Positions 2,924 through 53,812 of a stretch of 64,000 bases of DNA are shown here, piece after piece; within the stretch, counting starts at the first letter, position 1, and every line of letters starts with the position of its first letter. The DNA lies in the NCBI GenBank assembly GCA_022508885.1, contig JAFLUG010000002.1, positions 6,816-70,815 of the forward strand, given 5' to 3'. The position numbers and the translations under genes were made by a program. The stretch is from Oscillospiraceae bacterium (GTDB taxonomy: Bacteria > Bacillota > Clostridia > Oscillospirales > Ruminococcaceae). A model generated the notes under the pieces. The model saw nothing but the letters and a program-made list of their open reading frames with translations, was not told the origin of the DNA and ran no database searches.

Positions 2924-2952
2924 TTGACTTAACAGCATATGAATGATATAAT
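2924..2952 (+). promoter_or_regulatory. sigma-70-type promoter reading into the left prophage junction (putative original promoter of the recombinase gene)
   Basis: TTGACT (2924-2929), 17-nt spacer, TATAAT (2947-2952). It has the same layout as the promoter at 10996-11024 and is followed by the same CAGTAGGG leader. Confidence 0.55.
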
Positions 2953-2957
2953 AACCA

Positions 2958-3006
2958 CAGTAGGGAAAAATATTGCTTATTGCGTAAAATAGAAATGTTA
3001 TGGTAG
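2958..3006 (+). repeat. Left copy of the junction direct repeat (attL-like): intact left arm and centre of the recombinase core site, with a degenerate right arm
   Basis: 2958-2995 (cagtagggaaaaatattgcttATTGCGTAAAATAGAAA) matches 11030-11067 at 33 of 38 positions. The last 18 bp, ATTGCGTAAAATAGAAAT (2979-2996), are identical to 11051-11068. The right arm here is TGTTATGGTAG(CAAT) instead of TTTTACGCAAT. Confidence 0.75.
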
Positions 3007-3014
3007 CAATTTTA

Positions 3015-3046
3015 GTGCGGTTTTCACAAACCGCACTTCTTTTTTT
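3015..3046 (+). terminator. Rho-independent terminator just inside the left prophage end
   Basis: GTGCGGTTT (3015-3023), loop TCAC, AAACCGCAC (3028-3036), followed by TTCTTTTTTT. Confidence 0.75.
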
Positions 3047-3145
3047 GTGTCAACTTTCCGGCTCTGTTCGTCATGACTTTTTTCATCATTTTTGCGCGAC
3101 TCAGCTCGTCATAATTATATAAACGGTATTCGCGCCTTCGATAGC

Positions 3146-3395
3146 CCGCGCCCGCAGGCGCGGAACTCTCTTAGTGTTATCTTCTAAAAAACTCATGAGC
3201 CGAAATAAGTTTTTCCTCTATTTAGGACTTTTAACGCGCCCGCCTCGATAATAAATTGAACAAATCAAGGTTATATTTGCGGTATGACAACTTTCGGTTT
3301 CTTGAAAGAAGAACAGCGCAGCCTCGCGCGGGGTGGGCTTCAGCCCTCCGCGCGAGGCGTTCGGGGAAACCCCGTCTTGGTAATACGGGGTTTCC
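3146..3395. other. Cluster of GC-rich perfect hairpins (candidate phage intergenic region: ssDNA origin or packaging signal)
   Basis: Three hairpins: CCGCGCC-cgca-GGCGCGG (3146-3163); GCCTCGCGCGG...CCGCGCGAGGC (3321-3358, with inner GGGCT/AGCCC); GGAAACCCCGT-cttggtaat-ACGGGGTTTCC (3365-3395). The three overlapping ORF-track ORFs here lack RBSs and recognisable motifs. Confidence 0.5.
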
Positions 3396-3472
3396 ATTAC
3401 AAGCACCCCTGACCGGGGCGGAAATCTCGGTCTGGATGAAGAATAAAAAATCCAAAATTTACCATTTTCCCG

Positions 3473-3506
3473 CGGTGAAAAAATATCCCCCGACCGAGGT
3501 CGGGGG
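3473..3506 (-). terminator. Rho-independent terminator of the leftward lysogeny operon
   Basis: Plus-strand hairpin CCCCCGACC-ga-GGTCGGGGG (3487-3506). On the minus strand it is followed by ATATTTTTTT. It lies directly after the stop of the 50-aa gene. Confidence 0.7.
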
Positions 3507-3510
3507 GGGT

Positions 3511-3663
3511 TTATTCAGCTTTTTCAATGTATTTTTCTTTCATTTCATTTAAATCTGAATTTACTCTTTCAATAAAATCTTCTTTACTTTCTGCATTATC
3601 TGAATTAAAGTTTAACATTTCTATAATTTCTTCAAATATCTCTTCAATTATTTCTTTTTTCAT
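3511..3663 (-). CDS. Small acidic helical protein (50 aa), translationally coupled to the XRE repressor
   Basis: Own translation: MKKEIIEEIFEEIIEMLNFNSDNAESKEDFIERVNSDLNEMKEKYIEKAE. Its ATG (3663-3661) overlaps the repressor TGA (ATGA). Below the ORF-track size cutoff. Confidence 0.5.
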   Translation of the reverse strand: MKKEIIEEIFEEIIEMLNFNSDNAESKEDFIERVNSDLNEMKEKYIEKAE

Positions 3664-3890
3664 TTTCTCATCTCCTTTTTTTTATATGGTTTTTCTTCAT
3701 CTGTAATATTTGCTATATAATCTATCGAAACATTGTATATTTTTGCGAATTGTACTGCTACATCTAATGGTACTATTCTTTTCCCGTGTTCGTATCTTAT
3801 ATAACTATTCAATGATATAAAGGCTTTCTTTGCACATTCGTTTTGTGAATAGCCTTCTCTTTCTCTTAATTCGCTTAATCTTGTGTACAT
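3660..3890 (-). CDS. XRE-family helix-turn-helix repressor (cI-like), 76 aa
   Basis: LSELREREGYSQNECAKKAFISLNSYIRYEHGKR is a typical HTH_3 motif. The gene is divergent from the rightward phage operon, with three operators in between. Confidence 0.85.
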   Translation of the reverse strand: MYTRLSELREREGYSQNECAKKAFISLNSYIRYEHGKRIVPLDVAVQFAKIYNVSIDYIANITDEEKPYKKKEMRK

Positions 3891-3930
3891 TCATTATACC
3901 ACCTTTCTTTCTTTTATTATAAAAAAAAAT

Positions 3931-3991
3931 CTCCAAATGGAGTTGACAATTCACTCCAAATGGAGTATAATGATTATAACTCCAAATGGAG
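3931..3991 (+). promoter_or_regulatory. Rightward phage promoter interleaved with three identical operators
   Basis: CTCCAAATGGAG (arms CTCCA/TGGAG) occurs at 3931-3942, 3954-3965 and 3980-3991. TTGACA (3943-3948) directly follows O1. TATAAT (3966-3971) directly follows O2, with an exact 17-nt spacer. Confidence 0.75.
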
Positions 3992-4032
3992 TTAAATTTT
4001 ATTTCTCATTAAAAGAGAAGAAAGGTGTTTTT

Positions 4033-4392
4033 ATGAGTTTATTAGAAAGTATTTTTGAAGTCAAAAAAAGACAAGTTTTTTCAAGCGATCAAGCAAGATG
4101 TGAAGAATTCCTTCAATATTTTGATGATCCGGATAGGCTCATTGATTATTTTAAATGTAGCATTTTTTTCCAACCTGAGCTTGATTTTTATTATCAGTTA
4201 GCCTCATTTATTACTATGCTTGATTATGCCGAAGACCTTTTTTGTTATCTAATTTATTATGGATTTCCTTTTGAGATGGCAAAAAATATTCTTCTTCCTT
4301 TTTATTACAATGATGAGGCTTTAGTTAAATCGTGGTTTTATAATTGTATGTCTCGCGCTTCTGATGATATAAGAAAAAAACATGGTATTTAA
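4033..4392 (+). CDS. Hypothetical phage protein, 119 aa (first gene of the rightward operon)
   Basis: The ATG at 4033 is preceded by AGAAAGG. The ORF-track start at 3883 would overlap the repressor start and the operators. No motif recognised. Confidence 0.5.
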   Translation: MSLLESIFEVKKRQVFSSDQARCEEFLQYFDDPDRLIDYFKCSIFFQPELDFYYQLASFITMLDYAEDLFCYLIYYGFPFEMAKNILLPFYYNDEALVKSWFYNCMSRASDDIRKKHGI

Positions 4393-4430
4393 ATTTATCG
4401 CTCACCAAAAGAGCAGAAAGGTTTATAAAA

Positions 4431-4574
4431 ATGGAAAATCAAGAAACTAATGAAAAGTCCCTTGAACATTTAGAAATGGAAGCTTTTGAGGATTGGTTCT
4501 GGAAAACCTATGAATCTACAAAAAATCTTTCTTCTGAACAATTTCTTGATTATTATGATTATGAATTTCCTTAA
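4431..4574 (+). CDS. Hypothetical small acidic protein, 47 aa
   Basis: Own translation: MENQETNEKSLEHLEMEAFEDWFWKTYESTKNLSSEQFLDYYDYEFP. RBS-like AGAAAGG upstream. Confidence 0.4.
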   Translation: MENQETNEKSLEHLEMEAFEDWFWKTYESTKNLSSEQFLDYYDYEFP

Positions 4575-4577
4575 ATT

Positions 4578-4609
4578 CCGTTGGTCGTCCGGATCACGAC
4601 GACCACCAA
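4578..4609 (+). repeat. Conserved hairpin motif, copy 1
   Basis: CCGTT-GGTCGTC-cggatcac-GACGACC-ACCAA. See copy 2 at 5491-5520, which has a compensatory base-pair change. Confidence 0.6.
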
Positions 4610-4671
4610 GAGCAATAACGCTCTATAAATTTTATAGCTCTATAAAAGAGCGGAAAGAAGAGGTAAAAATT

Positions 4672-4932
4672 ATGTTGGTACAGTTGATTGGTGTTCAGGA
4701 TTTAAATTTTGACACGGACGACAACAAGCACATCGAGGGTCTTAAGCTGCACATCGCTTATGAGAATCCGCACGTTACCGGGCTGAAGGTCGACAGTAAG
4801 TTTATCAATGCAGACCTTTGCAAGAAGCTTAATCTGACGGCTTCAACCCTTGCCGGATATATCGACGCTGTTGTAGATATTGCAACGGATATCAACGGTA
4901 AGATCATCGGCGTTACACCTTGTAAGGAGTGA
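4672..4932 (+). CDS. Hypothetical 86-aa protein; position and size compatible with an ssDNA-binding (gene V-like) protein
   Basis: ATG at 4672 is preceded by AAGAGG. MLVQLIGVQDLNFDTDDNKHIEGLKLHIAYENPHVTGLKVDSKF... looks beta-rich and has no TM segment. The functional guess rests only on size and synteny. Confidence 0.45.
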   Translation: MLVQLIGVQDLNFDTDDNKHIEGLKLHIAYENPHVTGLKVDSKFINADLCKKLNLTASTLAGYIDAVVDIATDINGKIIGVTPCKE

Positions 4933-4938
4933 TTTTAC

Positions 4939-5034
4939 ATGCTCGAGTTTCTTCAGTGGGCTTGCCTCGGAAGCGGAATAATCTTTGCAGTTCTGCTTGT
5001 GATTTATTTCGTAACACGCAAGCGGGGGGATTAA
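4939..5034 (+). CDS. 31-aa single-TM protein with a basic C-terminus (coat or minor-coat candidate)
   Basis: Own translation: MLEFLQWACLGSGIIFAVLLVIYFVTRKRGD. RBS AAGGAG lies 8 nt upstream. Confidence 0.5.
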   Translation: MLEFLQWACLGSGIIFAVLLVIYFVTRKRGD

Positions 5035-5037
5035 TGT

Positions 5038-5283
5038 ATGTTGGAAATTCTTTTGAGTGAAGTTACAGAAACCTTGCCGGTACAGGCTATTGAGCTTGAA
5101 GAACAGATAAATCATTATTGGGCGCAGCTTGGCTCTTCTGTATTTCAGCCCGGTTTGATTATTGACCTTCTTTCGGATATGACAAAAAATCCTCTCTGTC
5201 TTTCTGTAACTGGCGCTTTGCTTGTAGTTTTTGGTTTTAAAATCTTCTCTCAAATGATATTCGCTCATCTTGAAAGGAGGTGA
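5038..5283 (+). CDS. Hypothetical 81-aa protein with a C-terminal TM segment
   Basis: ORF-track ORF. The hydrophobic LCLSVTGALLVVFGFKIF lies near the C-terminus. The gene is tightly packed between its neighbours. Confidence 0.5.
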   Translation: MLEILLSEVTETLPVQAIELEEQINHYWAQLGSSVFQPGLIIDLLSDMTKNPLCLSVTGALLVVFGFKIFSQMIFAHLERR

Positions 5284-5287
5284 TATT

Positions 5288-5479
5288 ATGGAAGGTTCAA
5301 GTACAACCGTTTTGCAGACCGTTGCAGGTAATTCAAAGGATTTTCTTGGCTTGGTAACAGATATCGGGAGTACATGTATGCAGAATGAGGTTTGCATGGC
5401 ATTTCTGACTGTTACTTTCCTTTCTTTGGCTGTACGTCTGTTTAAGAAGGTTGTCCGTGCTCTCGGTCGCGGAAGATAA
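5288..5479 (+). CDS. 63-aa major-coat-protein candidate (pVIII-like architecture)
   Basis: ATG at 5288 is preceded by AAAGGAGG. It has a polar N-terminal part, then the hydrophobic core MAFLTVTFLSLAV, then the basic tail RLFKKVVRALGRGR. Hairpins and a terminator follow, as after coat genes of known filamentous phages. Confidence 0.5.
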   Translation: MEGSSTTVLQTVAGNSKDFLGLVTDIGSTCMQNEVCMAFLTVTFLSLAVRLFKKVVRALGRGR

Positions 5480-5490
5480 CCTTCGTCAAC

Positions 5491-5520
5491 CCGTTGGTCG
5501 TTCGGGTCACAACGACCTCC
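5491..5520 (+). repeat. Conserved hairpin motif, copy 2
   Basis: CGTT-GGTCGTT-cgggtcac-AACGACC-TCCA. Relative to copy 1 the innermost stem pair changes from C:G to T:A (covariation). The flanks CCGTT...CCAA are conserved. Confidence 0.6.
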
Positions 5521-5560
5521 AAAAAAATCCGCCTTTCGGCGGGAATAGTTTATTTTTCAT
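5521..5560. terminator. Short bidirectional terminator between convergent phage genes
   Basis: An A-run, then CCGCC-tttc-GGCGG (5529-5542), then T-rich sequence. It sits between the coat-candidate stop and the stop of the minus-strand 47-aa gene. Confidence 0.45.
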
Positions 5561-5693
5561 TATCGTTTAATTTCTTAAGTATTTCGTCAAGCTTTTTTTC
5601 TATTGGTTTCATCAAAACGTGATACATTGTTATTATTATAATTACTAATCTTATGAAATCTAATGTTATTAATAGCCATATTTGATTTTCCAT
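5550..5693 (-). CDS. 47-aa single-TM protein encoded antisense to the structural operon
   Basis: Own codon-by-codon translation: MENQIWLLITLDFIRLVIIIITMYHVLMKPIEKKLDEILKKLNDNEK. RBS AAGGAG lies 8 nt upstream on the minus strand. Confidence 0.5.
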   Translation of the reverse strand: MENQIWLLITLDFIRLVIIIITMYHVLMKPIEKKLDEILKKLNDNEK

Positions 5694-5757
5694 TTTTAAC
5701 CACTCCTTTCAATTTGATTATATCAAATCGAGATTATTTTGTCAATGAGGTGATTTT

Positions 5758-7530
5758 GTGAAAAAGGTTTCTTCGGTTTTAATGGCTGTTGTAATATTTC
5801 TTGTTTGCGTTCTCTCTTGCTCGCTTACTGTCTTTGCCATTGGCGAGTTTTTGATTGATTATTCTGTATCTTATGTTTTAGATTACTTTTCGGATAATCT
5901 TTTAAATTCTCTTAATTCCGGTCAGGCAAAAATTGAAGCTGCTCGAAGCTATTATTTTTATAAGCTTGTAAATAACGAATATAACTATAATGGTTCTGTT
6001 TTTTCTTCCGATGGTACTCGTTTTACTGATGATTATTTAAATCATTGTTGGGACTATTATTTTGAAGTTGTTTCTGCAAATCGTAACGAATATGACAGTT
6101 CTGGAGATGTATTTTTGACAGCTGCAGGTTTTGACGGTTCTTCTTGGAAGTTGTCTATGATTGCTTTTGAAGATTTCGGTAATGAAAGCGGTAACACTAA
6201 TAATGAAAATACTTGGCGTTCTGACTATAAGAATTATTATCAAACCTATCTCGCCCGTTACATATTAGACCAAGGTGGCACAGCTTCCGACCCTAACCCC
6301 GGAAAAAGTGGTCTGGATATCGCTCCCGGATATGTAAGTTCCGACGATCTTAAGGAGCATATCAATAAGGAAAATACACTTTACAGTCCCAAAGGCAAAG
6401 ACCTTTTCTTAAATTCCTATCGTACCGATAAGAACTATCATAGAGAAAAAATTCCTTCCGGTTATACGGATAGCCTTTACTATGTCACATTGTTTCAAAA
6501 TCCTCAGACTATGGAGTGTTTGAGGGATTTGTATTGTCTGCCGTTCTATAAAGCTGAGGACGGCACAATGTACTATTGTGACTATATGTTCCATTATTAT
6601 TGGGTTGCTAATGATGATCCAAATTCAGATATTGCCTTTCGTGCTGACGTTTATCAGTTCAATCAGACTTTAGGCTATATTTATCATGACGAGTATTCCG
6701 GAATTATTTATGAGGGTTTAAGTTATTCTATGCCTTATCAGATAAGGACAGCCGCTTTTACTTATTCCGGCTCGGGTCATTATAATGATTCACCTTATTT
6801 TTCTTTCGTTTCAGATTTAACTGAATATGACGACTGTAAAGCTACTATATATCAAACTGTTCCATATCTTGCCTTGAAATTTTCGTATTTCTTGCCCGAC
6901 TATTCAGCTTCCTATCTTTTTTATAGATACAGTACTAATTCCTCGTATATTACAATTTACAAGAATTTTTTTAATTCAAGTCTTTCCGGTTATCCTTACA
7001 GCAAAAACCCTAACACTAACAATGATTATGGTTTCATCTGCTCCGAAAGCATGATTTCAACCGTTTACAATATAGACAGCTCTCGCATTCCTTCCGGTCA
7101 GATCATTCAGATCACCGGAGATAGTAACGTATATAACTATTATATGACTGATCCCGAAACAGGGCATAGCAGTACTGTAAACGAGTTTGTAGAAAACAAT
7201 TATACATATATCACCAATAACAACGGGGGAGAGGGAAGCGGATCCGGCGGAGCTGGCGGAGATATAAACGTCAGCGGTAAAGTTGATGTTGAAGGAGATA
7301 TCCACGTTGGTGTTGACGTTAATATAAATCAGGGCGGAACCGGAGTAAATCCCGATGATTTCATACAAGGCGATTTAGATCTTGGCGGTTATTATGACGA
7401 TGCTGTAGATATGGCTTCCGGCGTTAATAATTTTATGCAGCTTTTCTTCTCGTTTCTTCCTGCTGAAATTTTATCGCTTCTTGGTATTCTTATAGCTGTC
7501 GCAATAGTCTGTCGGCTTCTTGGGCGGTGA
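5758..7530 (+). CDS. pIII-like adsorption / minor coat protein, 590 aa
   Basis: GTG start after GAGGTG. Signal peptide MKKVSSVLMAVVIFLVCVLSCSLTVFA. Long Tyr/Asn/Ser-rich ectodomain. Gly-rich linker NNNGGEGSGSGGAGGD. C-terminal membrane anchor LSLLGILIAVAIVCRLLGR. Confidence 0.65.
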   Translation: MKKVSSVLMAVVIFLVCVLSCSLTVFAIGEFLIDYSVSYVLDYFSDNLLNSLNSGQAKIEAARSYYFYKLVNNEYNYNGSVFSSDGTRFTDDYLNHCWDYYFEVVSANRNEYDSSGDVFLTAAGFDGSSWKLSMIAFEDFGNESGNTNNENTWRSDYKNYYQTYLARYILDQGGTASDPNPGKSGLDIAPGYVSSDDLKEHINKENTLYSPKGKDLFLNSYRTDKNYHREKIPSGYTDSLYYVTLFQNPQTMECLRDLYCLPFYKAEDGTMYYCDYMFHYYWVANDDPNSDIAFRADVYQFNQTLGYIYHDEYSGIIYEGLSYSMPYQIRTAAFTYSGSGHYNDSPYFSFVSDLTEYDDCKATIYQTVPYLALKFSYFLPDYSASYLFYRYSTNSSYITIYKNFFNSSLSGYPYSKNPNTNNDYGFICSESMISTVYNIDSSRIPSGQIIQITGDSNVYNYYMTDPETGHSSTVNEFVENNYTYITNNNGGEGSGSGGAGGDINVSGKVDVEGDIHVGVDVNINQGGTGVNPDDFIQGDLDLGGYYDDAVDMASGVNNFMQLFFSFLPAEILSLLGILIAVAIVCRLLGR

Positions 7531-7534
7531 GTAT

Positions 7535-7714
7535 ATGACGTTTGATTTAAGCGGCTTCGTTGAGCTTGGCACATGGCTTTTTTCTATCGGAAAATCTATA
7601 TTTGAAAGCTTCGTTTTTGATTTCGGCGATTTCCAAATTAATGGCTTTGCTTTGATGATTGGAATAGCTGTATTTTGCATTATATGTTATCTTTTAGGGA
7701 GAATTACTGAATAA
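7535..7714 (+). CDS. 59-aa membrane protein (pVI-like position)
   Basis: The ATG at 7535 lies 4 nt after the pIII-like stop. Sequence MTFDLSGFVELGTWLFSIGKS...GFALMIGIAVFCIICYLLGRITE. Its stop overlaps the next ATG (TAATG). Confidence 0.55.
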   Translation: MTFDLSGFVELGTWLFSIGKSIFESFVFDFGDFQINGFALMIGIAVFCIICYLLGRITE

Positions 7715-8391
7715 TGGGAATAGCAGAAATAATTGAAATAATTGAAATTGTCAATTTTGCTTTGGAGCTTTCCGAAGCTATTGAAAACGGTGTAAATTAC
7801 ATAATTGAGAAGTTTGTAGATTCTTCCGGTAATGTATGTACACGGATTGTATATCGTTATGACAGTACGGGCGACGGTGTAGAGGACAGCGAGGAGATTA
7901 TTTATACTCTTCAGCAGACTATTCCTAAACTTTATGATGGTTATTGCCTTGTAAATAAAGGAAATGAAATTGGCTTGGGTCAGCCTTCTTTAAAGCTTGT
8001 AGACGCTTCCGAGCTTCTTCCTATACTCGGTGATACTTATTCCGTTATATCTGATGGAGAAGGTATTAAAATAGATTTTGATGATGACGGCTTCATTGAT
8101 GATATTTTTTTTCCTGCTCCATACGATTTTTCCGGTGACGGTATAAACGATTGGTATCAGATAGTCGATGATGACGATAACGGACTTCCGGATTGCGCTC
8201 CCGGTACTCCTTTTTATTCTGTCGGAAGTGACGAGTATAACTACATAATCGAAACGCAGTCAGATACCGAAGTTCCGGCTCTGGATAAGAGCTTTGCAAA
8301 CTATACCGTTACCGAGGCTCTTTTGTTCCTTATATTTGTAGCCGGAGCGATCGGCGTAGGTGCTAAATTTTTCAAGCGGAGGAATATTTAA
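7714..8391 (+). CDS. Acidic 225-aa protein with DxDG-type loops and a C-terminal TM anchor
   Basis: DDDGFIDD, SGDGINDW and DDDNGLPD resemble calcium-binding loops. The C-terminal ALLFLIFVAGAIGVGAKFFKRRNI is an anchor. Confidence 0.5.
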   Translation: MGIAEIIEIIEIVNFALELSEAIENGVNYIIEKFVDSSGNVCTRIVYRYDSTGDGVEDSEEIIYTLQQTIPKLYDGYCLVNKGNEIGLGQPSLKLVDASELLPILGDTYSVISDGEGIKIDFDDDGFIDDIFFPAPYDFSGDGINDWYQIVDDDDNGLPDCAPGTPFYSVGSDEYNYIIETQSDTEVPALDKSFANYTVTEALLFLIFVAGAIGVGAKFFKRRNI

Positions 8392-8392
8392 T

Positions 8393-8539
8393 ATGAGCTT
8401 AGATAATATCTGGTTTGGCAGTTTCGAGGACGTTGTTTCTTGGCTCTGTTCCGCTGTTCCTTACGCTTTCGTATCTGTCTTTGTTCTTTCATGCGTATTC
8501 TCTGTTTTTGAAACTGTTTCGAATTGGGGTAGAAAATGA
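8393..8539 (+). CDS. 48-aa single-TM protein
   Basis: Own translation: MSLDNIWFGSFEDVVSWLCSAVPYAFVSVFVLSCVFSVFETVSNWGRK. RBS GGAGG upstream. Confidence 0.45.
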   Translation: MSLDNIWFGSFEDVVSWLCSAVPYAFVSVFVLSCVFSVFETVSNWGRK

Positions 8540-8658
8540 TGTTTGAGCTTTCTAATCTTCGGGAATTTTTCTATTGGCTTACCGGCTTGGGTCCTGTTCT
8601 TTTCTTCTTTTTCATCGCTAAGAATTTCATTATTTTCTTCAGAAAGGACGGAAAGTAA
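8536..8658 (+). CDS. 40-aa single-TM protein
   Basis: Own translation: MMFELSNLREFFYWLTGLGPVLFFFFIAKNFIIFFRKDGK. ATGA overlap with the previous gene. Its stop abuts the next ATG (TAAATG). Confidence 0.45.
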   Translation: MMFELSNLREFFYWLTGLGPVLFFFFIAKNFIIFFRKDGK

Positions 8659-9462
8659 ATGTTTTCTGCTATAATCAGCGCTATAAAATGCGCTCCGAGG
8701 TTCTGGGCTTTTTTCTTCAAGGACTTTTATTATTACATAAAATACAAGAAGTGGAGCGATTTCAATTATTGGGGGCTTCATTTGTTCCTCGGTAAGTTTG
8801 GTTCCGGTAAGACTATTTCGGCTGTCCGGTACGCATATAACATCTGTAAGAACCATAAGGGCGTTACCGTTCTTACTAACCTTACGCTTACCAATTTTCC
8901 TAAGGATACCACTATTATTAAGTTGGTTAATTCCAATCAGATTAAGGAACTGCCTAATAATTCTATTGTTCTTATTGATGAAATAGGTACCATTTTCAAT
9001 TCTCGCGACTTTGCCTCTTCAAAAAAGTCCGTTCCGAAGCCTGTTTATCAGATAATTTTACAGTGCCGTCACAGGCGTATTATCATGATCGGCACTGTCC
9101 AGCGCTGGAATCTGTTGGATAAGCAGCTTAGAGATATCGCCGACACCGTCACTGAGTGCCGTAGTTTTTTCGGCGATCCTTTTTCCCGGTATACTACTTG
9201 TGCCAATTATGACGCTTACGAGTATGATAAGTGGTTCAATAATCCTCTTATTCCTCGCACTCTTCGTCGTTATTACGGATATATTCAGACCGACAAGCTG
9301 CGCAGTAAGTATGATACTATTGAAATGGTCGAGGGTATGCTCGATGCTGAATATATCCCCGATGAGCAGATCATACAGAACAGGGAAGGAACTTCCTTTT
9401 CTCCTGCTGAGTTTGAGAGCAAGTCCGCAAAAAAATCTATAAGAAAGGCGCTTAAGAGATGA
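8659..9462 (+). CDS. Zot/pI-like P-loop NTPase (filamentous-phage morphogenesis ATPase)
   Basis: Walker A GKFGSGKT and Walker B IVLIDEIG, with a hydrophobic N-terminal segment. It lies in the canonical position after the structural genes. Confidence 0.6.
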   Translation: MFSAIISAIKCAPRFWAFFFKDFYYYIKYKKWSDFNYWGLHLFLGKFGSGKTISAVRYAYNICKNHKGVTVLTNLTLTNFPKDTTIIKLVNSNQIKELPNNSIVLIDEIGTIFNSRDFASSKKSVPKPVYQIILQCRHRRIIMIGTVQRWNLLDKQLRDIADTVTECRSFFGDPFSRYTTCANYDAYEYDKWFNNPLIPRTLRRYYGYIQTDKLRSKYDTIEMVEGMLDAEYIPDEQIIQNREGTSFSPAEFESKSAKKSIRKALKR

Positions 9463-10715
9463 TTACCTGTAAGCCCAGCGATTATTTGACTATATCCCTT
9501 ATTCCGGATAAGGATAATAATATAGATTTGGCAGATTTTATTACTCTTTTGCTCGATACTATGCATCTTTCTGATATGCTCCCTCTCATGCGCTTTATGT
9601 GCTCAACCTCTAAATATGAGCAGATTTTGCGGTATGAGGATATCCAGATAAAAATTCCTTATGCCGAAAACTATAAGAAGCAGGGTATTTGCCTTGAATT
9701 TTCGGGAAATGGTGTAAATTATTATATCGAGTGGCTTAAAAGTAAATATAATACGAGCTTGCGCTCTGCGTGCAGACGTTTTTACGCGCTTGTGACAAAA
9801 GGCTTCAAGCCTAATTGTTCCCGCTTTGACGTGGCTTTTGATGAAAAAATACTTAATTCCGGAGAAGAGAAGTATCTCGATCTCGATGTTATAGAAAGTA
9901 CGCTTCGCTCTCGCTGTTTTGTTTCTTGTTTTCGGAAGGGCGATCCTGATCATAGCTCCGGAGAATTTTCTTCCGTGCTTATTGATTTATCCAAAGCTGA
10001 TGAAAAGCTCCATTGTGATTTCATCAGCTCCATGAACCTTTCAAACGGTGTTGTCGGTAAAACAATTCAGCTCGGCAAGCGTAATAGTTCTTCAGTTGTA
10101 CGCTTTTACGATAAAAGAGCTGAGCAAGAGGTAAAAGGGGTAGAGCTGCCTAATAATCTTTCTTCTTGGGTTCGTTGTGAGTGCGAGTTTAAGAAACTTA
10201 ACGCTAATTCTGTTATGATGAAATTTGTTGAACTTTCGGAAAAGGATTTTGTTACATACTGCTCCGGTGTGCTTCTTAACCTTATTCGTTTCATCAATCT
10301 TGACCGCTCACGCCGCTCAAATTGTACTGTCTGCGATTGGTGGCTTGGTTTCCTCAAACACGCTAAGCGCGCGAAATTGGTGCATTTCAAGCCTCAGCGT
10401 AATAAATATATCCGTGCTGTAGCTTACCAAAAGAAAAGCGTTTCAGCTTGTCTTACCGCAATTTCTATGTGTGATCCTCGCGAAATACGCAGTATTTACG
10501 AATCCGGTCTTGATATGGTTGCCGACAGTAAATCCGCTCAGGCTATAATCGCGGACTATAACGCTTTGAAGAATTTAAGCCCTTACGAGTTTGATAAAGA
10601 ATGTCACCGTTCATTGGATCCGTTGACCGGGGTTCAGTTTTTGCGCCTGTTTACGGCTAAATCTGATGACGAGTTCAATCAATTCCTTTCCGAGCTTAAA
10701 AAGGAGATAGCTTGA
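9459..10715 (+). CDS. Rolling-circle replication initiator (Rep_trans / replication initiation factor family)
   Basis: RFDVAFDE, VRFYDKRAEQE and WVRCECEFK match my recollection of the Rep_trans (pT181 RepC / phage RCR initiator) conserved blocks. ATGA overlap with the ATPase gene. Confidence 0.7.
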   Translation: MITCKPSDYLTISLIPDKDNNIDLADFITLLLDTMHLSDMLPLMRFMCSTSKYEQILRYEDIQIKIPYAENYKKQGICLEFSGNGVNYYIEWLKSKYNTSLRSACRRFYALVTKGFKPNCSRFDVAFDEKILNSGEEKYLDLDVIESTLRSRCFVSCFRKGDPDHSSGEFSSVLIDLSKADEKLHCDFISSMNLSNGVVGKTIQLGKRNSSSVVRFYDKRAEQEVKGVELPNNLSSWVRCECEFKKLNANSVMMKFVELSEKDFVTYCSGVLLNLIRFINLDRSRRSNCTVCDWWLGFLKHAKRAKLVHFKPQRNKYIRAVAYQKKSVSACLTAISMCDPREIRSIYESGLDMVADSKSAQAIIADYNALKNLSPYEFDKECHRSLDPLTGVQFLRLFTAKSDDEFNQFLSELKKEIA

Positions 10716-10987
10716 TAGTGTGTGATTGGTGGAGCTGCGCACATTTTGAGGACTGTAAAGCTCGTTGCATTTTCTCCGGTTCTAAATATCCGGCTTGCTA
10801 TATGTGCGTACATTTTGATATGTGTGATGTTTGCACTGAGTATGTCAATTGTGCCGATCTGGTTACTCGTTATCTTCCGAATATGTTCCGTAGACTTGTA
10901 AGAGATATCCGGCTTGGGGAAGATACCGAACGGACAAATCAGTTTATACGCCGTAATACTCTCGGCGGTCAGAAGCGTGATGTCTGA
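10712..10987 (+). CDS. Cys-rich 91-aa protein (11 Cys in the first 47 residues)
   Basis: MIVCDWWSCAHFEDCKARCIFSGSKYPACYMCVHFDMCDVCTEYVNC... TTG start 5 nt after AAGGAG, overlapping the Rep stop. Confidence 0.45.
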   Translation: MIVCDWWSCAHFEDCKARCIFSGSKYPACYMCVHFDMCDVCTEYVNCADLVTRYLPNMFRRLVRDIRLGEDTERTNQFIRRNTLGGQKRDV

Positions 10988-10995
10988 CCGCTTAC

Positions 10996-11024
10996 TTGAC
11001 ATATTCTGGTCATAATGGTATAAT
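10996..11024 (+). promoter_or_regulatory. Consensus sigma-70 promoter (phage side of the right junction) now driving the recombinase gene
   Basis: TTGACA (10996-11001), 17-nt spacer, TATAAT (11019-11024). Confidence 0.6.
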
Positions 11025-11029
11025 GTCCT

Positions 11030-11078
11030 CAGTAGGGCAAAATATGAGCTATTGCGTAAAATAGAAATTTTACGCAAT
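11030..11078 (+). repeat. Right copy of the junction repeat, containing a perfect 28-bp palindromic tyrosine-recombinase core site
   Basis: ATTGCGTAAAA-TAGAAA-TTTTACGCAAT (11051-11078) reads as 11-6-11, or equally as 12-bp perfect arms around AGAA. It lies between the -10 box and the RBS (AGGGGGA) of the recombinase gene. Confidence 0.75.
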
Positions 11079-38609: not shown

Positions 38610-40220
38610 ATGAAAATCGCTGTTTATTCCCGAAAATCAAAATTTACCGGCAAGGGAGAAAGTATCGAAAACCAGATAGCGCTATGCAAAGAGTACATTA
38701 AAACGCATATTCCCAATGCAGCCGAAGATGACGTTTCTATTTATGAGGACGAGGGATTTTCCGGAAAAAATTTTGACCGTCCGCAGTTTAAAAAAATGAT
38801 GAAAACAGCAGAAAATGCTCCTTTCGACTATATCGTTGTTTACCGTCTTGACAGGATAAGCAGAAGCGTAGGAGATTTCGCGAATCTTATCGAAAAGCTG
38901 AATGAAATGAAAACCGCTTTTGTATGCATTAAAGAGCAGTTTGATACATCAACGCCCATGGGACGCGCAATGATGAATATTTCGGCGGTTTTCGCGCAGC
39001 TTGAGCGCGAAACAATAGCCGAGCGAATTCGAGACAATATAGTTCTCCTTGCTAAAACGGGACGTTGGCTCGGAGGAGTAACTCCTCTCGGATTTACAGG
39101 CGAAAAGGTTGAAATAAAAGATCCGGAGAATAAAAGACGTTTTGCGTTTAAACTTTCCCCGATCAAGAGTGAAATATTTACGGTAAAAACAATTTACGCG
39201 AGATTTCTCGAATCTCATTCTTTGACCAAAACGGTAACGTGGCTGATATCTCACGGTATAAAAACTCGTAAGAAAAACGATTTCAGAGCAAGGACAGTAA
39301 AGGATATTCTTAAAAATCCTGTATACTGCACAGCAGACGGCGACGCATTTGAATATTTTGAAGAACTTGGCTGTGATATATGCTTTACAAAGGAGGAAGC
39401 CGACGGAAAGCAAGGTATAATGCCGTTTTTAAGGACTTCTCAAAGCGGCAAGAAAACTCGACGAAACACGCCCGAGGAATGGATAATTGCTATTGGAAAG
39501 CATAAGGGAATCATTTCTTCGGAAGATTGGATCAAGACTCAGAACCTGCTTGGAAAAAATTCCTCTAAAACCTTCTATAAGCCGTCAAGAAACAGTACGG
39601 CAATATTTACGGGACTTGTAAAATGCGGTGAATGCGGACACAATATGCGTCCGCGACTATCAGGCCAAAATAAAGGCAACGATCCGCGAAAATTTACATA
39701 CATGTGCGAATATAAGGAACGTTCGAGAAGATCAAAATGTCGTATGCGCAACGCAAGCGGCAATATGCTTGATGAGAGCGTCATCACAGAAATACTTAAG
39801 CTCGGACAACTCAACGATCTAACCCAAAAGGAATTAACTGCCCTGCTGAATTCTGTCAAGAATGAAAAATTATCCGAAAATATAAACGAGATGAAAAAAC
39901 AAATCTCTGAAAAGGAAAAAATGATTTCAAAGCTTATGAACAGCTTTGCGGCTTCAGAAAACAGCTCATCATACGAATATGTAAAGCGTGAAACAGAGAA
40001 GATCGACAACGAGATAAAATGCCTTAGGGAAGAGCTTATGCACATTAATAATTCTGAAAAACAAACTGAAATCTTGAATATTGAATGTATTGTAAATGAG
40101 TTAATGGATTTCAAAAAAAGCTTTACGGGACTTTCGATCATTGAAAAACGGGATTTTGTAAATAAAGTTATTGAAAAAATTGTTTGGGACGGAGAAAAAG
40201 CAAATGTATATCTTAAGTAG
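38610..40220 (+). CDS. Large serine recombinase (SpoIVCA/phage-integrase type), 536 aa
   Basis: Resolvase catalytic domain (VYSRKSKFTGKGESIENQ ... VVYRLDRISRS), recombinase domain, Cys-rich zinc ribbon (CGECGHNM...CEYKERSRRSKC) and a C-terminal coiled coil. Confidence 0.9.
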   Translation: MKIAVYSRKSKFTGKGESIENQIALCKEYIKTHIPNAAEDDVSIYEDEGFSGKNFDRPQFKKMMKTAENAPFDYIVVYRLDRISRSVGDFANLIEKLNEMKTAFVCIKEQFDTSTPMGRAMMNISAVFAQLERETIAERIRDNIVLLAKTGRWLGGVTPLGFTGEKVEIKDPENKRRFAFKLSPIKSEIFTVKTIYARFLESHSLTKTVTWLISHGIKTRKKNDFRARTVKDILKNPVYCTADGDAFEYFEELGCDICFTKEEADGKQGIMPFLRTSQSGKKTRRNTPEEWIIAIGKHKGIISSEDWIKTQNLLGKNSSKTFYKPSRNSTAIFTGLVKCGECGHNMRPRLSGQNKGNDPRKFTYMCEYKERSRRSKCRMRNASGNMLDESVITEILKLGQLNDLTQKELTALLNSVKNEKLSENINEMKKQISEKEKMISKLMNSFAASENSSSYEYVKRETEKIDNEIKCLREELMHINNSEKQTEILNIECIVNELMDFKKSFTGLSIIEKRDFVNKVIEKIVWDGEKANVYLK

Positions 40221-53733: not shown

Positions 53734-53812
53734 AAAATCACCTCATATTCAAGCGTAAATTCAATTTAATTGCGTAAAAGTTTTCTTTTGCGCAGTATAT
53801 CCCCGTCTTGCC

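Follow-up and report, generated by a model that had tools for sequence, protein, structure and literature searches.

An inovirus-type prophage at a palindromic core in the leader of a host Xer-family recombinase gene in an uncultured Oscillospiraceae bacterium

How does a small prophage that encodes no recognizable integrase settle in a bacterial chromosome, and what becomes of the host gene at its border? The question is raised by a compact element in a 64-kb stretch of DNA (hereafter the window) from an uncultured, PolC-encoding Oscillospiraceae gut bacterium. The original prediction, made from the letters alone, had placed an inovirus-like prophage of ~8.1 kb at 2996-11067, bounded by a direct repeat. 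The repeat was recovered as two 59-nt copies (2942-3000 and 11014-11072) that are 83% identical and spaced 8,072 bp apart. Setting the crossover at the end of the common 18-nt ATTGCGTAAAATAGAAAT gives an insert of 8,072 bp at 2997-11068, within one base of the borders first drawn and inside the 5-15 kb genome range of inoviruses. The repeat is real but is no anonymous attachment (att) site, as it consists of the palindromic core of a recombinase together with the promoter and leader of the recombinase gene.

Protein profile searches against Pfam, PHROG and NCBIfam, in addition to Kyte-Doolittle hydropathy for membrane segments, were used to examine the phage identity of this element. The proposed Zot/pI-like P-loop ATPase and Rep_trans rolling-circle initiator both scored above the Pfam cut-offs (Table 1); moreover, the ATPase matches the Zot-like toxin and M13 protein I families of PHROG and carries the Walker A motif GKFGSGKT and the Walker B motif VLIDE. 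All 17 of the 17 reading frames are intact and tightly coupled, and the genes from 5758 to 10987 adjoin or overlap by 1-4 nt, the chaining noticed at the outset. No open reading frame (ORF) matched tailed-phage terminase, portal, capsid or tail proteins in Pfam or PHROG except for two marginal matches, one of the Zot-like ATPase to a terminase large-subunit PHROG (E 0.0026) and the other to a P22 tail-factor Pfam below threshold, in agreement with the predicted lack of a tailed-phage gene grammar. The same two libraries revealed no secretin among the ORFs. Together with the empty site and the undecayed state of the block described below, the profile support for Rep_trans and Zot upholds the inovirus reading, and the element is very probably a real and intact inovirus-type filamentous prophage.

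The three profile libraries revealed no integrase, transposase or serine-recombinase domain in the element ORFs scanned, which took in all those of at least 86 aa plus the 63-aa and 76-aa ORFs. Scans for tRNA, tmRNA and Rfam families over the whole window detected none, so the element does not sit at a tRNA site. Just beyond the right border, where the coordinates first proposed stop short, lies a host gene for a Xer-family tyrosine recombinase. We consider it likely that integration was Xer-mediated, as judged from the sequence, and the combined explanation of a filamentous prophage with Xer-mediated integration is likewise probable. By analogy, the element is read as an inovirus of the type of integrative mobile elements exploiting Xer (IMEX), residing on a module that resembles xerS/difSL.

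Attachment core and host recombinase

The intact palindrome at the right border (attR) ends 13 nt upstream of the recombinase gene. Its unoccupied counterpart (attB) was found in a Logan contig (SRR27406848_16521, locus L004) by exact-protein look-up of the flanking gene that encodes an SCP2-domain protein. In this contig, a gap of 233 bp separates the SCP2 gene from the recombinase gene, the flanking proteins match those of the window at 99-100% identity, and the palindrome is intact and identical to the attR core; a near-identical strain without the phage thus supplies the predicted empty-site junction. As only the right arm of attL is degenerate, and attR and attB are intact, alignment of the three places strand exchange within ATTGCGTAAAATAGAAAT. 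The reciprocal products are exact, with neither duplication nor deletion of the target. The reconstructed phage site (attP) has a good left arm and centre in addition to a degenerate right arm, with a predicted junction of TATGAGCTATTGCGTAAAATAGAAATGTTATGGTAGCAATTTTAG. The recombinase gene was also considered as a part of the phage; this was rejected, because the empty site keeps the gene, the promoter and the core, and phage-free orthologues occur in many species.

The best PDB matches of the recombinase are XerA, XerD and XerH, and by sequence it belongs to the Xer family, being neither a XerS orthologue nor a canonical XerC or XerD. It has at least 7,994 homologues, and the top 120 listed are all from metagenome-assembled genomes (MAGs) or metagenomes. 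A scan of species-representative genomes yielded 44 orthologue loci, all from uncultured Oscillospiraceae or related Clostridia. In ~25 of the 44, each from a different species, the arms recur directly upstream of the orthologue around a 6-bp centre that varies, at a distance of 12-120 nt from core to start codon. Orthologues of 42-49% identity have other palindromes at the same place, either ATTTCGCTAAA-N6-TTTAGCGAAAT or TGTGAAAC-N-GTTTCACA, indicating that the core sequence changes along with the recombinase orthologue across species. From the adjacency of gene and core, their joint change and the lack of any other recombinase, we infer that the host Xer protein catalyzes the integration.

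Promoter replacement, related phages and mobility

The insertion has moved the native recombinase promoter 8 kb away from its gene, and this promoter now reads into attL. In the empty site L004, the same promoter sequence immediately precedes the gene, and it is kept in other empty sites. At its right end the phage carries an outward promoter, downstream of which a 37-nt stretch is 76% identical to the host leader, and this promoter probably now drives the recombinase gene. Equivalent outward promoters are present at the right ends of four related phages (L018, L051, L052 and L063), and the arrangement of a core followed by a terminator also occurs in L025 and L062. We propose that the phage promoter would keep the host recombinase expressed in the lysogen, and that the terminator behind attL would insulate the prophage from read-through of the displaced host promoter. 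In the episomal form, the joining of 10996-11078 to 2997-3046 would bring promoter, attP core and terminator into a transcription unit of ~75 nt, and a small RNA across attP is possible.

Five integrase-less relatives (L010, L018, L051, L052 and L063) occupy the same site, which is thus a hotspot for such phages, and share the layout of ATPase, Rep, Cys-rich protein, promoter, core and recombinase gene. By contrast, three IMG/VR relatives with ATPases of 42-47% identity (L107, 4997-13345; L113, 5219-14569; L084, 6841-15221) each encode a tyrosine integrase of their own, and repeats of 47-89 nt that resemble tRNA 3' ends flank them. The sequences point to two integration strategies in one phage group, in which the absence of an integrase goes with the recombinase-linked core. 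A more divergent inovirus-like element in a Candidatus Fimenecus MAG (L045, 1882-9979; ends approximate) lies in the opposite orientation between two copies of TGTGAAAC-N-GTTTCACA that are 8,081 bp apart, the right copy adjoining the recombinase orthologue. It encodes a Zot-like ATPase of 24% identity and a coat-like protein equipped with a signal peptide, and has a small ORF resembling a single-stranded DNA (ssDNA)-binding protein (SSB).

Traces of former insertions were found at the same place in other loci. L033 (9797-9990) has the host promoter, attL, ~70 bp and an intact core, that is, a deletion scar of ~100 bp, and its degenerate arm TATTATGATAG is identical to the attL arm of the present phage at 9 of 11 positions. 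L025 (8050-9981) harbours a mini-element of 1.9 kb that keeps only a Cys-rich ORF. In L034 (9808-10001) a 27-aa remnant of the Cys-rich gene is followed by a phage-type promoter, which appears to drive the recombinase gene permanently. In L062 (3193-4855) the phage right end of L063 recurs, but in place of the recombinase gene it leads into a half-core with a terminator hairpin and then a toxin-antitoxin pair of the RelB/YoeB type, for which the other loci have no homologue. This may be an attP junction of a related phage or a second element in tandem, and it was set aside as proof of attP. The half-site matches in L021 and L035 were dismissed as elements, since they flank ordinary zinc-transport (znu) genes.

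Many MAG contigs (L009, L011, L022, L027, L028, L031, L044 and L002) break off 20-320 nt ahead of the recombinase gene, and two of these breaks fall exactly at the core. This pattern is expected from polymorphic or repeated insertions, the background rate of contig breaks left aside.

Is the prophage still mobile? A separate sample (SRR13619850) contains it at 100% identity along 7,828 nt, and the assembly of that sample breaks off at the repeats. This copy together with the empty site argues for a recent, polymorphic insertion instead of a decayed block fixed at the locus, the outcome that would have spoken against the original prediction. The phage may also have become cryptic and non-productive, domesticated to the point where its sole remaining role is to provide the recombinase promoter. 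The remnants in L034, L033 and L025 show that decay does occur at this site in relatives, and no circular junction was found. On the other side stand the 17 intact and tightly coupled frames, the identical copy in the second sample and the near-identical strain with an empty site, and we regard domestication as improbable. We infer that the phage is currently active.

Several observations weigh against Xer-mediated integration of a filamentous phage. The pairing of the recombinase with the site is putative. Its best NCBIfam models are XerC, XerD, archaeal XerA and XerS, and it falls below all equivalog cut-offs (XerC 191.5 bits against 335, XerD 185.8 against 330, XerS 114 against 267); the NCBI Prokaryotic Genome Annotation Pipeline labels its homologues only as “tyrosine-type recombinase/integrase”. 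A second palindrome, ATTGCGTAAAA-GTTTTC-TTTTGCGCAGT at 53769-53796, differs from the recombinase-linked core by 2 mismatches (0.01 such sites expected by chance); situated in the hisH-hisA spacer at a distance of 42.7 kb, it has a different centre, and the core may not be unique. GC skew and gene orientation would fit a replication terminus at the site in some genomes and give no such signal in others. The skew is higher in the left flank than in the right in 17 of 21 loci, and in the source genome positive values far to the left stand against negative ones across the greater part of the 53 kb to the right. Of 24 loci, only 3 have their cumulative-skew maximum at the site, and several lack a switch within 20 kb. 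Exact-pattern scans of the Joint Genome Institute (JGI) metagenomes and IMG/VR, collections in which the phage itself is absent, revealed no circular (attP) junction joining the ends as the original prediction had envisaged; protein-based scans for this phage returned distant relatives at 38-41% identity only, or none. On the phage side, the ATPase has no transmembrane segment by hydropathy, unlike canonical pI, and the coat and pIII candidates are assigned by architecture only.

Some of these points would suit a route in which the phage Rep_trans protein, or a host factor other than the neighbouring recombinase, integrates the element and the palindrome is a hairpin hotspot or a regulatory operator. 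Rolling-circle initiators nick hairpin-forming palindromes, the his-operon palindrome lies away from any recombinase gene, and the core is a putative recombinase site. Such a route is nevertheless unlikely: an 11-6-11 arrangement of conserved arms around a variable centre is the architecture of tyrosine-recombinase cores, the site changes with the recombinase orthologue, attL and attR are exact reciprocal products without target duplication or deletion, and the sister phages that encode an integrase integrate at tRNA genes. Xer-mediated integration could also be carried one step further. It is conceivable, as a tentative extension, that the 28-bp palindrome is the true dif of an unrecognized single-recombinase Xer system, laid out like xerS/difSL and widespread among Oscillospiraceae and their relatives, and that one clade of inoviruses without an integrase has acquired an attP of the “bring-your-own-promoter” kind.

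Further palindromes and recombinases were seen in passing. A palindrome similar to that in the hisH-hisA spacer lies just upstream of hisA in L030 (position 4684) and L032 (position 853). L029 (CAVIFG010000171.1), a 5.1-kb contig filed as “Escherichia coli isolate ... cleanbin”, carries a recombinase orthologue of 75% identity and a half-core, and is probably mis-binned in the public record. In the window, a large serine recombinase of 536 aa with a CcrB/XisF-like N-terminus is encoded at 38610-40220, at the edge of a lower-GC segment (~38-46 kb, GC ~0.39-0.41) where the GC skew changes sign; this segment may be another integrated element.

Gene content and proposed life cycle

Table 1. Features of the prophage and its borders (window coordinates)
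Feature	Position	Strand	Evidence or remark
Native recombinase promoter	2924-2952	+	TTGACT-17-TATAAT with TG (extended -10), 11/12
attL hybrid core	2979-3006	+	ATTGCGTAAAA-TAGAAA-TGTTATGGTAG; left arm and centre intact, right arm degenerate and phage-derived
Terminator-like hairpin and T-run	3014-3046 (hairpin 3014-3037)	+	First feature after attL
GC-rich non-coding hairpin cluster	3047-3510	+	GC 0.47 vs about 0.30-0.37 in neighbouring windows
Bidirectional terminator hairpin	3486-3507		Closes the GC-rich non-coding cluster
50-aa acidic protein	3511-3663	-	Co-transcribed with the repressor
XRE-family repressor	3660-3890	-	HTH_3, E 1.9e-10; divergent from the phage operon
Three exact CTCCAAATGGAGT operators	3931, 3954, 3980 (region 3931-3992)	+	3 found vs 0.06 expected
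Sigma-70-type promoter	3943-3971	+	12/12; overlapped by CTCCAAATGGAGT operators
119-aa acidic protein	4033-4392	+	Without Pfam or PHROG match
47-aa acidic protein	4431-4574	+	ORF map
86-aa OB-fold ssDNA-binding protein, gene V/RstB analogue (predicted)	4672-4932	+	Predicted structure
31-aa one-transmembrane protein	4939-5034	+	Position of Ff pVII/pIX
81-aa one-transmembrane protein	5038-5283	+	Hydropathy
63-aa candidate major coat protein	5288-5479	+	Polar N-terminus, transmembrane segment, KK..R..R.R basic tail
47-aa one-transmembrane protein	5550-5693	-	Own 12/12 promoter (5745-5717) with extended -10, own terminator
590-aa pIII-like protein (candidate)	5758-7530	+	N-terminal signal, Gly-rich GGEGSGSGGAGG linker, C-terminal transmembrane anchor
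59-aa one-transmembrane protein	7535-7714	+	Alternative TTG start at 7520; position of Ff pVI
225-aa acidic protein	7714-8391	+	C-terminal transmembrane anchor
Two translationally coupled one-transmembrane proteins, 48 and 40 aa	8393-8539, 8536-8658	+	Just ahead of the ATPase gene
Zot/pI-like P-loop morphogenesis ATPase, 267 aa	8659-9462	+	Pfam Zot 33.7 bits (cut-off 20.3)
Rep_trans rolling-circle initiator	9459-10715	+	Rep_trans 104.5 bits, E 7.5e-30; plus Rol_Rep_N
91-aa Cys-rich protein	10712-10987	+	Last gene ahead of the attachment site; kept in related phages
Phage outward promoter	10996-11024	+	TTGACA-17-TATAAT with TG (extended -10), 12/12
attR intact 28-bp palindromic core	11051-11078	+	ATTGCGTAAAA-TAGAAA-TTTTACGCAAT, dif-like 11+6+11
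Host Xer-family tyrosine recombinase gene, 348 aa	11092-12138	+	Outside the phage; presumed integration enzyme

The genes for virion and secretion components had been described as lacking recognizable named homologues, which holds for sequence profiles but, in the case of one protein, not for structure. The 86-aa protein found no support in sequence-profile searches and only itself in a word-index homology search, and a single-sequence AlphaFold (AF2) model was discarded for its low confidence (predicted local distance difference test, pLDDT, 45.6). An exhaustive HMMER search recovered ~50 representative homologues, and the AF2 model built on 38 of them reached a mean pLDDT of 95.4. Structural similarity search of this model against BFVD gave an unnamed entry as the best match (E 1e-6), followed by an Inoviridae sp. 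protein (E 3e-5, TM-scores 0.74/0.86), an RstB-like protein and the SSB of the Thermus inovirus OH3. The top PDB matches are OB-fold SSBs, with the Ff gene V protein at a TM-score of 0.50 and weak E-values. The model is thus a clear structural match to inovirus ssDNA-binding proteins, and the product is predicted to be gene-V/RstB-like.

The order of the genes runs from the SSB through two small transmembrane proteins, the candidate coat protein, the pIII-like protein and a small transmembrane protein to the pI-like ATPase. In the Ff phages the order is V-VII-IX-VIII-III-VI-I, to which that of the element is, by analogy, parallel. The hydropathy scan found a single transmembrane segment in eight small proteins, where at least seven had been predicted. 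The 63-aa protein among them shows the expected polar, hydrophobic and basic-tail layout and has no homology with known coat proteins; its ORF has the strongest ribosome-binding site of the element, AAAGGAGGTG, and is followed by terminator-like hairpins (5491-5543). The 590-aa protein has all three parts ascribed to it (signal, Gly-rich linker and anchor), gave no match in the profile searches, and has weak homologues at the same position in L010, L018, L051 and L052; it is a candidate adsorption or minor coat protein. Homologues of the 48-aa and 40-aa pair occur in L010 and L018.

The closest public relative of the ATPase outside the host clade is ~50% identical, and those within the clade reach 67-69%. 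At least 125 relatives of 42-50% identity are present in IMG/VR, many on contigs of 4-9 kb, and others occur in GenBank records named Inovirus; the identity to GenBank phages is at most 33%. That the element is an integrated rolling-circle plasmid or another non-viral element with a Zot-like ATPase and no virion is highly improbable, for even though Rep_trans is best known from pT181-type plasmids, a weak MobT-relaxase match was seen, and Pfam and PHROG gave no homologue of known function for the coat and adsorption proteins, the ssDNA-binding protein has an inovirus-type fold, the Ff-like gene order includes coat-like 63-aa and pIII-like proteins, and the nearest relatives of the ATPase reside on those 4-9 kb viral contigs and Inovirus records.

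The left end combines the predicted GC-rich hairpin cluster with a divergent repressor. As ssDNA, 2990-3530 folds to -104.9 kcal/mol, compared to -70.4 +/- 5.1 for shuffled controls (z = -6.8), and the non-coding cluster is a candidate for the ssDNA packaging signal and one or more replication origins. The XRE assignment of the repressor was borne out by its HTH_3 match, and the operators, together with the promoter that they overlap, form a putative lysogeny switch. A 32-nt leader motif, TTAT.GCTC....AAAAGAG..GAAAG, is repeated at 3993-4024, 4389-4420 and 4626-4657 before the ribosome-binding sites of three early genes, including that of the ssDNA-binding protein, and these genes may share it as a translational operator. 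Another 32-nt repeat, which forms a hairpin, is present at 4578-4609 and 5491-5522.

The minus-strand 47-aa ORF sits inside the structural module and has no homologue in L010 or L018. It looks like a moron-type gene, perhaps for superinfection exclusion or a toxin. Exact look-up of the 91-aa Cys-rich protein returned only the contig of the window itself. A role as a Xer-specific accessory factor of the XafT type was considered but found no support, since small Cys-rich ORFs also end the relatives that integrate at tRNA genes.

We propose the following life cycle. The neighbouring host recombinase would join the chromosomal core to a phage attP whose left arm is good, whose centre is identical and whose right arm is degenerate, in the manner of TLC-phi and the gonococcal genetic island (GGI), and the XRE repressor would hold lysogeny on its three operators. 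On induction, Rep_trans would start rolling-circle replication, and the 86-aa OB-fold protein would coat the plus strand. Finally, the Zot-like ATPase and the small membrane proteins would extrude the virions through the single membrane, without a secretin.

Comparison with known systems

Inoviruses of gut Clostridia have already been reported by Roux 2019 (PMC6813254), in silico for Firmicutes, and, as secreted phages from prophages of Enterocloster and Hungatella, by Burckhardt 2023 (PMC10061712). These reports, in addition to the at least 125 IMG/VR relatives, show that the novelty of a filamentous phage in a Gram-positive anaerobe had been overstated: the phage itself is one more member of a common group, and its integration design is the useful part. 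The present element shares with the reported ones a prophage size of 6.5-8.5 kb, a host among the Clostridia, a pI/Zot-like ATPase with 10-16 small ORFs, flanking direct repeats and the lack of a secretin. It differs in its Oscillospiraceae host, and the two papers give no integration mechanism. In the work of Roux et al., a repeat counts as a canonical att site when it lies “next to an integrase” (PMC6813254). As the recombinase is a conserved host gene that is also present at empty sites, this rule would misfile the layout as integrase-encoding, and annotation pipelines of this kind would assign the host gene to the phage; it is present on each of the IMG/VR contigs L051, L052 and L063.

Compared to the Ff phages (M13, fd and f1), the element has a similar gene order, a structured intergenic region and rolling-circle replication. 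It differs in having Rep_trans instead of Phage_CRI (gII), no secretin (pIV), a pI-like protein without a transmembrane segment, and a temperate lifestyle with an XRE switch.

Filamentous phages of the IMEX type are known from Vibrio (CTX-phi, VGJ-phi and TLC-phi), alongside the gonococcal GGI (PMC5357621, PMC4246890). Similar to them, the present phage has no integrase, its attP mimics a host Xer target, and one intact and one crippled site remain after integration. As in TLC-phi and GGI, attP keeps a good arm and centre and the other arm is degenerate; as in the Vibrio and gonococcal systems, the site is occupied by different elements in tandem or serially. There are also differences. The host is a monoderm of the Clostridia, the core is perfectly palindromic and apparently served by a single recombinase, in contrast to the heterodimeric XerC/XerD site, the recombinase gene carries the target in its own leader, so that a promoter must come from the phage, and the target is a candidate dif. 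Our literature searches turned up neither an IMEX-type inovirus in a monoderm host nor an integration into a core inside a recombinase leader with promoter replacement. The locus offers a sequence-level case of a filamentous phage that would use a host Xer-type recombinase in a monoderm anaerobe, with the target inside the recombinase gene's own transcription unit. The large unnamed recombinase family, with its conserved cognate site, is a candidate platform for dimer resolution or integration in uncultured gut Clostridia.

A single-recombinase Xer target is also exploited by LME-1 of Legionella. According to Nicholson 2022 (PMC9765430), LME-1 is a mobile element with a dif mimic at a XerL-dif target near the terminus, its integration revealed the Legionella system, and the recombinase was tested genetically. 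The host of LME-1 is Gram-negative and LME-1 is no inovirus; the Oscillospiraceae site, by comparison, is known from sequence alone.

The closest parallel in gene arrangement is the XerS/difSL module of streptococci and lactococci (Le Bourgeois 2007, PMC1914069; Nolivos 2010, PMC2965235). In both cases, the core lies between the promoter and the coding sequence of a Xer-family gene, and this linkage is kept throughout the clade. However, the present protein is no XerS, and its core is a symmetric 28 bp compared to the asymmetric 31 bp of difSL. Le Bourgeois et al. proposed that the linkage of dif to xerS guards against IMEX, since an insertion severs xerS from its promoter (PMC1914069). The present phage carries its own promoter at the right and a terminator at the left, which appears to be a counter-measure to promoter loss and contradicts the idea of linkage as a shield (PMC1914069); it appears to bypass the proposed barrier. 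If the palindrome is a true dif, the attP, composed of promoter, leader mimic, core and terminator, would defeat the protection envisaged for the streptococcal module, and a host dimer-resolution enzyme would be expressed from a phage promoter.

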